From a virus, in IMG/VR virus record IMGVR_UViG_3300032323_003835, positions 1 to 64,000 of that record: a DNA stretch of 64,000 bases, one strand, 5' to 3'. The position numbers and the translations under genes were made by a program. Positions 41-31,443 of this stretch are shown in pieces. The notes under the pieces were generated by a model. The model did not search any database, was not told the DNA's origin, and worked only from the letters and a program-made list of their open reading frames with translations. Within the stretch, counting starts at the first letter, position 1. Every line of letters begins with the position of its first letter.

Positions 41-423
41 TGGTGGAGATGAGGGGATTCGAACCCCTGTCTCCGAAAGTAATCATAACACTAACGTTTC
101 ACACGCTTAGTTAGTTTTTCTTGCCTAACAAAATAGATAAAGATTTATACATTCATTATCATTGATGTTTCCAATTCGATTTTGGGTTCAATTGGTATCC
201 ACCTTTATAGCTACTTCTGTTACTGAGCGTATGTAGTCCGGCTCTATTTTTTGATTAGGCAGCTACTGCGTAATCAGCGCCTACGAAAGACATAGCATCT
301 TCGAAGGTCATTGTTGACAATTCGTTGTCGTTTATCTGTTTGTACCTTGATTAAAGAGGATGAGTACCATACCTCTGCGTGTAGTGCTACCATTCGCATC
401 CGGATCAAATGCCAGGCATCCCC
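41..423 (-). ncRNA. ssrA: tmRNA
   Basis: 5' GGGGATG pairs with 3' CATCTCC-ACCA including G3:U70; T-arm GGGGTTCGAATCCCC; internal tag ORF 329..255 (A)DNELSTMTFEDAMSFVGADYAVAA*. Confidence 0.95.
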
Positions 424-28963: not shown

Positions 28964-30592
28964 CTACTGATTTTCTATCTCGTTCCATGTGTCAATTAAA
29001 GCTTTGGCAAAAATAGGTTCTTTACCAGTCCATCCAGCTAAAATAGCACCACGGTAAAGATTCTCTGGCAATACCGTATTATCATATCCTGCAACTTGAA
29101 CCGAAAATAAATTAACCTTTGGATTAACCTCTTTCCTATATTTCTGTGCTAAAGCTAGTACGTCGATGTGTCTTCCCCCCTCGTGTCTGAATTCACTGTA
29201 TTCGCTAGGATCGTTCCCGTATAAACCACCATGGCCAGCTTGCATGTCTGAATAAATAAATATATTATCGTAATGCTTTTTATTTTTAATAGCTTCGTCA
29301 AAAAATATCCAAATCCCGTTTTCTGTACTACCACCCAATTTTCCATATTCTCTTTCTATCGAATTAATGTCATTCAACTGTGATAATAAACCATTTCTTT
29401 TAGAAACCGGCTCAACTATAAGTCTATCCCCGAATAATCCTATTTCGCCCTCGTCTGATTGCTTACCGGTGATAAGAGAAGAAAGATTTGCTATCTCAGC
29501 AGCATAAACTGATCCATATTCAGAATTTAACTGTCCCCAAGAAGATCCTGAATTGTCCGAGAGACAGATAGTTTTCCCGTCCAATTTAGGCATATTTAGA
29601 ACGGAAATATCCATGCAATTTTCCAGTCCATCCAATAATATTCCCTTATGGTTTATATCATTCTCCTTTTCTATTGCTTTATACGCTGACCAATATCTAA
29701 ATGGAAATTGTTTTCCTGTTTGAACACCGTCAACCAATTTTACTACCACAGATTTTGCAACTTCTAAATCATCAATCTCTTTAAAAATTCCTCTTATATT
29801 TCTTAAAAGAGCCATGTGCGGAACATTAATGGATTCGAGTATTTCTTTCCACGTCTTTCCCGAGGATCTTAGTGCCTCCCAGGTTTTTTCGGTCTCCTCT
29901 ACTTTGATTGAACCAGTTTTCATTAGTTCATCAATATCGTTATTCCATGCATGGGAAATTCTAACAAGATCTATCAGGCTTTTTCCTTTGTATTTGTTTA
30001 ATTGGTATCTAGAATATTCTCCTAACTTTTCTGCCCAGGTTCTTTTGATTATCGAGCTCAGTTTATTCTTTGTCTTATTGACATACATGAAATATTCGAA
30101 CTGGTTGGTTAAATCATCAGGTCTAAGAGCTATCGATTTGCCAATGTTTTTCATGTATCCCGGATTAGACTCGTTGAATTCAGCCCTTTTTGGGTGCATG
30201 GAAGCTCTGATGAATATTACAGAGGGATTTAACCTCATGTAAAAGGTGGTTCTTAGCTCCGTAGCTAAGTCCAAAGTTCCTTTGAAGTCATAATCTAAGG
30301 AAGCATCAATAGCGCTCGTAAAAACGTCACCAGATGACTTTGAATCCCCAATTATCTCTGATAAAATACTGTATTTTAGTAGAGTGGCGTGATTTTTAAT
30401 ATGTGATGGAGATTTTATGCCATCCCGGTAGTATTGGGGTTCCCCAAAAATAGAACTAGCAGCAACTATTTTTAGTGTCTGGAGAGGAGATATTTTATAG
30501 GAATTTCCCCCCATAAAATTTTCAACTTCCAGATCCTCAAATTTTCTGATTTCTGCTTTTGATTTAACTGCGTACTCTGATAACTTACTCAT
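28964..30592 (-). CDS. rsr: Ro60/TROVE domain protein with vWA domain
   Basis: RPDD, YQLNKY, DLVRISH, MALLRNIR, QFPFRY, DNSGS (MIDAS), IYSDMQ. Confidence 0.92.
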   Translation of the reverse strand: MSKLSEYAVKSKAEIRKFEDLEVENFMGGNSYKISPLQTLKIVAASSIFGEPQYYRDGIKSPSHIKNHATLLKYSILSEIIGDSKSSGDVFTSAIDASLDYDFKGTLDLATELRTTFYMRLNPSVIFIRASMHPKRAEFNESNPGYMKNIGKSIALRPDDLTNQFEYFMYVNKTKNKLSSIIKRTWAEKLGEYSRYQLNKYKGKSLIDLVRISHAWNNDIDELMKTGSIKVEETEKTWEALRSSGKTWKEILESINVPHMALLRNIRGIFKEIDDLEVAKSVVVKLVDGVQTGKQFPFRYWSAYKAIEKENDINHKGILLDGLENCMDISVLNMPKLDGKTICLSDNSGSSWGQLNSEYGSVYAAEIANLSSLITGKQSDEGEIGLFGDRLIVEPVSKRNGLLSQLNDINSIEREYGKLGGSTENGIWIFFDEAIKNKKHYDNIFIYSDMQAGHGGLYGNDPSEYSEFRHEGGRHIDVLALAQKYRKEVNPKVNLFSVQVAGYDNTVLPENLYRGAILAGWTGKEPIFAKALIDTWNEIENQ

Positions 30593-30613
30593 ATGTTTGG
30601 TTTTAATTTTTAC

Positions 30614-30649
30614 AAAAAAAAAAAGCTTACCGATGTTAGTCGATAAGCC
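30614..30649 (-). terminator. intrinsic terminator between Y-like RNAs and rsr
   Basis: GCTTATCGA-CTAACA-TCGGTAAGC followed by T11. Confidence 0.8.
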
Positions 30650-30694
30650 TTCCTATATTAAAAACAAACACAATTTAAGGTGTTTTTGGGAATA

Positions 30695-30768
30695 ACTTAC
30701 CGAGAATATCGAAAGGGGGTGTTGTTTTCGTTGTCCATGAAGTAACCCCCTATCCCGCATCGGATAGT
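30695..30768 (-). ncRNA. short Y-RNA-like ncRNA
   Basis: CCGATGCGG-GATAGGGGGT-TACTTC...ACCCCCTTTC-GATATTCTCGG stem; same motif as 30779-31040; adjacent to Ro60. Confidence 0.7.
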
Positions 30769-30778
30769 GTTTTATTAA

Positions 30779-31040
30779 TTGGTTATGGTAAAGTTGAGAA
30801 TCTCCAGATCTGGAGGTTGTCCATTAAGTGAACGATTCTCTAACCCGTAAGGCCGATTAGGGTCCCTGGATTTCTATCCAGAATATCTAAATTTGACATC
30901 AGTCTCTAAGGTCCGATGTATCTTACCCTATTAGATCGGATAAGATAATGTTTGGATAAATTTAATACAAGATCAAATTCATTCCGTGCATAATTGATTA
31001 TTTGATGTATCCAATTCTGCCGCTTCAACTTTAACAACCA
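30779..31040 (-). ncRNA. long Y-RNA-like ncRNA with multi-hairpin insert
   Basis: Terminal stem TTGGTTGT-TAAAGTTGA / TCAACTTTA-CC-ATAACCAA; GAAGCGG-CAGAATTGGA-TACATC...TCCAGATCTG-GAGATTCTC; starts immediately after the boxA-like 15-mer. Confidence 0.7.
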
Positions 31041-31096
31041 ATATTTTAAAGAACTTTTTGTTTAGATGTTTATATATGCAAATATAGAATAGTTTC
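31041..31096 (-). promoter_or_regulatory. promoter (GAAAC-N16-ATATAA) plus boxA-like element for the Y RNA/rsr unit
   Basis: Motif recurrence across the window; 15-mer shared with the tmRNA leader. Confidence 0.55.
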
Positions 31097-31143
31097 CGGT
31101 AGGAATAAAAATGTTTTATAAAAATTATTCGATATCTCCTGTA

Positions 31144-31443
31144 TTATGCTAAAGATTCTACCAGATAACTTTTTGATACTGCTCCAACCTTTCTCTCTTT
31201 CTCTTCTCCGTTTTCGAATAGGATAAAAGTTGGTATGGATCTAATTCCATATTTTTCTGCCAAATCCCTATTTTTGTCTACATCTATTTTGTATATGAGA
31301 TTTTCACCCAATTCATTTTCAACGCTTTCTAAAATAGGAGACATTGCTTTGCATGGTCCACACCAGGTTGCGTGAAAATCTACTATGCATTTTTTGGATT
31401 TAGAAATAATGCTTTCAAAATTTTCGTTCTGTAATTCTGTCAT
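31144..31443 (-). CDS. trxA: thioredoxin
   Basis: DFHATWCGPCK, IRSIPT. Confidence 0.95.
   Translation of the reverse strand: MTELQNENFESIISKSKKCIVDFHATWCGPCKAMSPILESVENELGENLIYKIDVDKNRDLAEKYGIRSIPTFILFENGEEKERKVGAVSKSYLVESLA

Follow-up and report, generated by a model that had tools for sequence, protein, structure and literature searches.

What are the structured RNAs that a phage encodes just upstream of its own Ro60 gene, and what might they do for that protein? The question arises from a window of 64,000 nt (the whole stretch of DNA analyzed here, i.e., positions 1 to 64,000 of the 111-kb virus record IMGVR_UViG_3300032323_003835), in which a preliminary description had read positions 30695 to 31040 as a short and a long Y-RNA-like noncoding RNA and had proposed a new Y RNA class with a novel effector domain, perhaps a decoy for host RNases or a tether for another protein. 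The minus strand is the coding strand of every gene in the part of the window around both RNAs, and on this strand the order is the end of a thioredoxin gene, a -7 box, the motif GUUCUUUAAAAUA, the long RNA, a 20-nt spacer, the short RNA, a terminator, and the Ro60 gene (Table 1). We regard it as likely, and as the best explanation of the locus as a whole, that both are Y RNAs, namely, noncoding RNAs that serve as dedicated partners of the Ro60 encoded by the phage itself.

The Ro60 ORF scores above the curated cutoff for the Pfam TROVE domain (28.2 bits; cutoff, 23), and phrog_850 ("RNA-binding protein") matches it across its full length (5e-40). Among solved structures, the closest is that of Ro60 from Thermus phage phiLo (PDB code 9KOP; 2e-12 with the single sequence and 4.7e-20 with a profile of the 13-sequence family), and the ORF product is 48% identical to gp540 of Bacillus phage G. 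AlphaFold modeling yielded a pLDDT of 34 from the single sequence and a pLDDT of 78 with a pTM of 0.79 (AF2) from the 13-sequence family alignment. The top 13 matches of the model in a Foldseek search of the PDB are all Ro60/Rsr structures (phiLo, Xenopus, human, and Deinococcus) with whole-chain alignments, and vWA domains come after these in the ranking. The model points to a true Ro60 fold, with a ring of TROVE HEAT repeats followed by a vWA domain.

Table 1. Features of the Ro60 locus, listed in the direction of transcription of the minus strand
Feature	Positions in window	Strand	Details
Thioredoxin gene	31144-31443	minus	Pfam, 2.8e-29; directly upstream of the Y RNA unit
Putative -7 promoter box, Bacteroidota type	31079-31086	minus	TAtaTTTG; direct reading of the sequence
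GUUCUUUAAAAUA motif, boxA-like	31042-31054	minus	Just upstream of the long RNA
Long Y-type RNA	30789-31033	minus	245-nt core
Long RNA, outer stem	31033-31025 with 30797-30789	minus	UAAAGUUGA with UCAACUUUA
Long RNA, 5' loop	31024-31020	minus	AGCGG
Long RNA, handle helix	31019-31010 with 30814-30805	minus	CAGAAUUGGA with UCCAGAUCUG
Long RNA, UACAUC	31009-31004	minus	
Long RNA, inner (apical) domain	30815-31003	minus	Six hairpins, not tRNA-like; RNAalifold and pair counts
Hairpin in long RNA insert	30866-30881	minus	CUGGA-UAGAAA-UCCAG
Hairpin in long RNA insert	30840-30860	minus	CUAAUC...GGUUAG
Hairpin in long RNA insert	30819-30833	minus	GUUC-ACUUAAU-GGAC
Long RNA, 3' loop	30804-30798	minus	GAGAUUC
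Short Y-type RNA	30695-30768	minus	Handle plus loop (18 nt beyond UACUUC), A-rich at the 3' end
Short RNA, outer stem	30763-30760 with 30703-30700	minus	CCGA with UCGG; ACU/AGU outside
Short RNA, handle helix	30754-30745 with 30720-30711	minus	GAUAGGGGGU with ACCCCCUUUC
Short RNA, loops		minus	5' UGCGG; 3' GAUAUUC; UACUUC after the helix
Intrinsic terminator	30619-30654	minus	Terminator scan: 15 pairs plus T-run; between the RNAs and the Ro60 start
Ro60 (TROVE + vWA) gene	28964-30592	minus	542 aa

Both RNAs are encoded on the Ro60 strand, with their ends 197 nt (long) and 103 nt (short) before the Ro60 start codon, and they share a stem that we term the handle, which consists of an outer stem, an (A/U)GCGG loop, a 10-bp helix, UAC(U/A)UC, and a 3' loop ending in the UUC of a conserved UUCUC. 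The pattern that the preliminary description had read as common to both RNAs, with GA(G/U)AUUC on the 3' side, is indeed present in each on the minus strand. Its further observation that the 10-nt helices differ in sequence and yet pair also holds (9 of 10 positions in each RNA), as does that of paired outer stems (9 bp in the long RNA and 4 + 3 bp in the short one). The short RNA, estimated at ~74 nt, has only a loop of ~24 nt on its handle. The core of the long RNA would be extended to ~265 nt, close to the ~262 nt first given, by a further stem (AUUGGUU, 31036-31042, with AACCAAU, 30778-30784); its fold has a z-score of -2.4. The string ATGGACAAC, which had been remarked upon in both RNAs, does occur twice (at 30824 and 30738), but we rejected it as a shared functional motif, as the short RNA does not keep it in relatives; one 9-mer repeated within 350 nt is not significant alone. 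A coding reading of the long RNA (a 43-aa ORF with a TTG start at 30906-31037) was likewise discarded, as relatives have 1-, 2-, and 5-nt indels there.

A search with the Ro60 protein recovered 7 viral and 25 metagenomic loci, and those with 64 to 85% protein identity and enough upstream DNA carry both RNAs in the same order, with compensatory changes. A hand-built census of 58 distinct units from phage loci gave the consensus N-G-A-(A/U)-G-C-(G/A)-G, a 10-nt strand, and UAC(U/A)UC, followed after the apical part by a 10-nt strand, 4 to 6 nt, and UUCUC-N'. The junction pair N/N' covaries in all 58 units (U-A in 34, C-G in 23, and A-U in 1). The covariation that had been claimed for the two RNAs is found in homologous loci: in a covariance-model alignment of 72 distinct units, located next to Ro60 homologs in phage and bacterial contigs, 94.9% of cells are paired versus 62.2% in shuffles and 38 to 46% in slid controls, and double changes are seen in 14 of 14 handle pairs (covariation score, 0.83 versus 0.21), values to be read with the tendency of such alignments, being fitted to the model, to lean toward the modeled structure. 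Owing to its G-U pairs, the fold is specific to the strand that is sense for Ro60. The family consensus of the junction is (C/U)GA(A/U)GC(G/A)G. The window copies, UUGAAGCGG and CCGAUGCGG, have the junctions UGAAG and CGAUG, each one base off CGAAG, and the exact CGAAG occurs in relatives (L003 and L022). A pairing of the GAAG of the 5' loop with the CUUC of UACUUC was considered and rejected, as GAUG accompanies CUUC, GAAG accompanies CAUC, and the two do not covary. A third, weak handle-like match in one relative (L002:27-96; 20 bits) was set aside too; it lacks a convincing helix, and nothing in the window corresponds to it.

With a covariance model of the short units (R1), the window copy scores 90.9 bits (E = 4e-26), and units downstream of Ro60 are detected in L006. 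When IMG/VR contigs were picked by the bare sequence pattern and then examined with R1 and tblastn, most of the model-positive contigs proved to carry an adjoining Ro60 homolog (52 to 66% identity). A profile scan of GTDB recovered 80 Ro60 loci in Bacteroidota and in many Firmicutes and Synergistota MAGs; R1 detected 41 units in about 33 of these loci, nearly all just upstream and on the same strand as Ro60. In one locus from Flavobacterium sp. 9AF (L158; NZ_LR733556.1, 2330182-2337786), a 70-nt handle unit lies directly upstream of a 56%-identical Ro60 homolog. This locus, on a 2.96-Mb bacterial contig, may be that of a prophage or a chromosomal gene. A blastn search of 50,697 cultured-phage records with the RNA region of the window returned no match.

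We then considered whether the handle forms in the long RNA as well. The strands of its handle helix are complementary at 9 to 10 of 10 positions in five clades with unrelated sequences, and the unpaired motifs GAAGCGG, UACAUC, and AUUCUC are conserved in all long RNAs. In the window clade, L005, L017, L031, and L089, however, minimum-free-energy and RNAalifold predictions prefer to place each handle strand in a local hairpin of its own. These predictions, together with the covariation of the inner domain on its own, would fit a descendant of a Y RNA that has acquired a Ro60-independent job (e.g., as a sponge, a host-RNA mimic, or a ribozyme-like element) and in which only the outer stem and local hairpins form, with no handle helix. 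We give this reading little chance. Complementarity of the two strands across sequence-divergent clades would be unexpected if there were no helix, the handle motifs are retained in every long RNA, and the energy gap is small: the penalty for enforcing the helix is 3.0 kcal/mol when the window RNA is folded alone and 1.2 kcal/mol when the alignment is folded, with a range of 1.2 to 3.8 kcal/mol in the window clade. Because the strands remain complementary in every clade and the unpaired motifs are conserved, we take the handle helix of the long RNA to be real, perhaps stabilized by Ro60. The folding models make an alternative conformation, or a conformational switch, possible. In several clades, the stretch formed by the 3' handle strand and the first bases of the 3' loop is self-complementary (window 30798-30818, minus strand, CUCCAGAUCUGGAG; L005:2312-2332, AAUCCUUUAACAAAGGAUU), and the 5' handle strand also has a local partner.

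Above its handle, the long RNA carries an insert of ~190 nt in the window. An eight-helix structure of the whole RNA (outer stem, handle helix, and six hairpins) has 91.8% of cells paired in the window clade, compared with 29 to 44% in slid controls, and double changes in 19 of 62 pairs versus 5.5 in shuffles; the test comprises six window-clade sequences, a small sample from which the structure itself was derived. Three of the inner helices initially proposed (ATCTTA/TAAGAT, ACATC/GATGT, and CTGGA/TCCAG) were recovered by RNAalifold with compensatory changes, but the fourth (TATCCAAA/TTTAGATA) is not predicted. Across clades, the insert ranges from 108 to 212 nt and is conserved in sequence only in the closest clade; nhmmer profiles of two clades performed no better than shuffles in detecting homology between clades. 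Two elements recur: the loop motif UAGAAA, found in 11 of 17 long RNAs, and a hairpin that immediately precedes the 3' handle strand and has a loop of the C-(G/U)-UAA type. Because only such short elements recur and no homology is detectable across clades, the insert is a structured domain that evolves fast, not a single conserved fold, and any single conserved partner-binding surface would be conjectural.

The relationship of the handle to known Y RNAs became apparent from Bacillus phage G. At L008:780-935, this phage has the handle (CUGAAGCGG, UAAAAGCAGU, UACUUC ... ACUGUUUUA, AAUAAUCUCAGG) enclosing a T-arm (GGUGGUUCGAGUCCACC) and a D-arm (UAGCUCAGUUGGUAGAGC), and this unit matches the Rfam YrlA model (RF02553; gathering threshold, 69 bits) with 36 bits (E = 2e-6). 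As it encloses a YrlA-matching T-arm/D-arm core, the handle is the stem of a YrlA-type Y RNA. Its junction, (C/U)GA(A/U)G, appears by sequence to correspond to the GNCGAAN0-1G motif of bacterial Y RNAs. R1 finds four units upstream of gp540 (23 to 45 bits), with the YrlA-type unit 2 kb further upstream. By direct reading of the sequence, the 1-kb gap before gp540 is filled by five unannotated handle units in tandem (NC_023719, L008 2252-2952; R1, 16 to 45 bits), which do not include the YrlA-type unit at 780-935.

Family units fall into three length groups, of 63 to 90, 115 to 160, and 178 to 262 nt. Many of the middle-sized units, especially those of Firmicutes MAGs and of L045, L054, and L069, have T- and D-loop motifs and weak YrlA matches (26 to 36 bits), and other middle-sized units are devoid of these motifs. 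The motifs are also absent from the long units of phage loci, with the exception of a bare GTTCRA hexamer in L050. In the window, neither RNA has a D-loop or GTTCRA motif, and a search of positions 30500 to 31200 against 4,227 Rfam families, which includes the YrlA and Y RNA model search that had been suggested, found no match of either RNA to YrlA or tRNA, and none of the long RNA's inner domain to any family, at E ≤ 10. Only chance-level matches were returned, to ctRNA_p42d and Qrr (both at the terminator), ceN67, mir-203, and STnc490. The original assessment that the long RNA has no GTTCRA T-loop and no tRNA-like domain is thus upheld. Over the whole 64-kb window, the sole Rfam match at E ≤ 1 is a tmRNA gene (41-423, minus strand; 87.7 bits), for which ARAGORN predicts a tag peptide ending in ...GADYAVAA.

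Could the long RNA nevertheless be a YrlA whose tRNA-like domain has decayed beyond recognition? Its insert occupies the place where YrlA-type units carry the T-arm/D-arm module. We find this scarcely credible, given that YrlA and tRNA models return nothing at E ≤ 10 where true YrlA-type members of the family score 26 to 36 bits, that T-loop and D-loop motifs are lacking, that six independent hairpins are predicted, and that the domain spans 190 nt as opposed to ~70 to 90 nt in YrlA-type inserts. A separate YrlA or tRNA gene was found nowhere in the 111-kb record; since this record is only ~33% complete, a YrlA elsewhere in this phage is possible. A relative with 84% Ro60 identity, represented by a 245-kb, 86%-complete contig, also yielded no YrlA, and its two weak matches are ordinary tRNAs. 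The single strong R1 match in this contig is the short unit, the long unit having been found separately.

The signals around the RNAs bear on how they are expressed. In Bacteroidota, the -7 promoter consensus is TAnnTTTG, by match to which the -7 box is a putative promoter; it is kept as TATATTTGC in relatives and in the 65%-identity clade. Between this box and the long RNA, a motif of the form (A/C)GUUCUUU(A/G)A(C/A)A, resembling the boxA of rrn and nut sites, occurs in all clades, 10 to 15 nt before each long RNA (besides the window, in L005, L017, L022, L026, L037, L050, L075, L083, L089, and L105). It may be an antitermination box or, because it pairs with an AAAGAAC just 3' of the long RNA in L017 and L083, a stem extension or processing site. 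The terminator is kept with compensatory changes in L003. The succession of promoter, long RNA, short RNA, and terminator is conserved in order and context in relatives, and in all of the freshwater-phage clades examined the long RNA comes first and is followed by one or two short ones. Other aspects of the neighborhood vary in their retention. The thioredoxin gene keeps its place even in the 65%-identity clade (L037, L050, L075, L083, L105, and L109; 32 to 40% identity). In the 66 to 68%-identity clade, the Y RNAs and their terminator are separated from Ro60 by a conserved ORF of ~138 aa without a known family (L005:2580-3000; likewise L013, L015, L016, L026, L027, and L031). The Y RNAs directly follow a tRNA array in L005, L017, and L031.

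The Ro60 start codon lies 27 nt after the T-run of the terminator. The presence of a terminator before Ro60, together with the boxA-like motif, suggests that RNA and protein output are coupled. An arrangement of promoter, RNAs, terminator, and Ro60 start, with no obvious promoter in between and a boxA-like motif upstream, could also be that of a cis-acting leader, in which Ro60 would bind the handles in its own 5' leader and set read-through of the terminator, so that synthesis of the protein is tuned by autoregulation to the level of free RNA. To this we assign a low probability, and it would be compatible with a trans-acting Y RNA role. Units lie downstream of Ro60 in L006 and L069, those of the L005 clade are separated from it by an ORF with its own terminator, some follow tRNA arrays, and the YrlA of phage G is 2 kb away. 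Units so placed mean that a cis leader cannot be the general function of the family. The reading of both RNAs as Y RNAs that act as partners of Ro60 remains the one we prefer.

How does this pair of RNAs compare with systems already described? Y RNAs are expected to be encoded no more than ~4 kb from a Ro60/TROVE gene, on its strand, and to have ends paired into a long stem with an internal loop or bulge, and both window RNAs fit this pattern; the tRNA-like T-arm/D-arm module, scoring at least 69 bits, that marks a YrlA is lacking from both. They resemble YrlA-type RNAs (RF02553; PMC4201824) in their adjacency to Ro60, their strand, their end stem, and an internal loop whose junction comes within one base of the CGAA-G-type motif, and the YrlA-type RNA of phage G has exactly their handle. 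In contrast, YrlA is defined by its T-arm/D-arm module, in place of which the long RNA has a 190-nt domain of six hairpins. The Yrl1 and Yrl2 RNAs of phiLo (PMC12135203; PDB codes 9KOP and 9L5Y) are likewise two non-tRNA RNAs encoded before a phage Ro60 gene, and the stem-bulge-stem of each contains a CGAA-type motif; phiLo, like the window record, has no PNPase of its own. Their description, based on a motif and on folding in a single genome, gives them one or two hairpins, and it is with this description that the window RNAs are compared here; the window differs in having a handle with family-wide covariation and one RNA with a much larger domain. In architecture, the short RNA also compares with Salmonella YrlB, another minimal Y RNA with a Ro-binding-type stem and a loop. 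Animal Y RNAs and Deinococcus Yrn1 share the overall plan of stem, internal loop, stem, and apical loop, again as a comparison of architecture; the animal RNAs have a helix with a bulged C and pyrimidine-rich loops, whereas the short window RNA has an A-rich loop and other conserved loop motifs.

The proposal of a new Y RNA class was therefore right in placing the two RNAs as Y-RNA-type partners of a phage Ro60 (YrlA-type stem, adjacency, and covariation) but too strong in calling the class new, since Y RNAs lacking a tRNA-like domain have been published (YrlB, PMC4201824; phiLo Yrl1/Yrl2, PMC12135203). The occurrence of Y RNAs beside Ro60 in bacteria and phages is also known (Chen 2014). Judging from Rfam and the literature that could be searched, the new elements are the handle, whose covariation extends over phages and bacteria, the variety of cargo found on it, and a clade whose largest cargo is a 190-nt non-tRNA domain and in which no YrlA was found. 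To our knowledge, published work holds that a Y RNA with a tRNA-like domain is present, at least once, in every bacterium or phage that encodes Ro60 and that this domain is central to function.

Building on the identity, strand, structure, and family membership of the RNAs, and on their lack of tRNA mimicry, we propose the following. Both RNAs would be transcribed as one untranslated unit, in the Ro60 direction, from the Bacteroidota-type promoter to the intrinsic terminator, and the transcripts would probably be trimmed back to their terminal stems; discrete, stable transcripts from both RNA genes are to be expected with good likelihood. We predict that Ro60 very likely binds both. The element GNCGAAN0-1G was proposed as Rsr binding by Chen 2014 (PMC4201824), who also set out the adjacency rule for Y RNAs, and we infer that the handle is the Ro60-docking site because it has a junction close to the CGAA-G-type motif and is the stem of the YrlA-type RNA of phage G. 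In the handle, the outer stem ends with N-G-A paired to U-C-N' and leads into an asymmetric internal loop, whose 5' strand is (A/U)GCGG and whose 3' strand consists of a few bases and UUC; the 10-bp helix of free sequence and the single-stranded motif UAC(U/A)UC come next. The short RNA would act as a minimal, YrlB-like Y RNA that occupies or gates Ro60. The six-hairpin array of the long RNA would be its effector end, placed where other family members carry the tRNA-like domain.

In Deinococcus and Salmonella, a Y RNA tethers Rsr to PNPase (PMC4201824), and the Ro60 of phiLo, which binds two non-tRNA Yrl RNAs encoded upstream of it, forms complexes with the PNPase of the host (PMC12135203). 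The effector end may link Ro60 with a further factor, for which a host protein such as a 3'-5' exoribonuclease is the likeliest candidate. Since no RtcB, RNB, or RNase PH (PNPase-type) domains were found in the 111-kb record or in the 245-kb relative, a nuclease partner would be host encoded, and Ro60 tethered in this way would redirect host RNA turnover during infection. A putative role of the long RNA domain as a tether or scaffold falls, in our judgment, slightly short of an even prospect.

A broader and somewhat unlikely reading is that the handle is a general docking adaptor with interchangeable cargo (none, a tRNA mimic, or other folds of 40 to 210 nt) and that the tRNA mimic has been replaced in one clade, that of freshwater Bacteroidota jumbo phages, by the fast-evolving multihairpin domain. 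If this is true, the 190-nt domain would bring in another host factor or imitate another host RNA, giving Ro60 a new specificity in infection, for instance in counterdefense, as is reported for gp130, a Ro60-like protein with which phage Bas63 acts against the Ppl defense (10.1101/2024.10.10.617714). In this well-supported Y RNA family, the putative Ro60-docking stem is the constant module and the apical, putative effector end the swappable one, with one phage clade appearing to do without a tRNA mimic. The handle consensus offers a way to find Y RNAs missed by current Rfam models, and the natural variants of its cargo allow one to ask what the effector end of a Y RNA recruits, a question as old as the discovery of Y RNAs. 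The phage also offers an accessible system in which the use of Ro60 particles by viruses can be studied.
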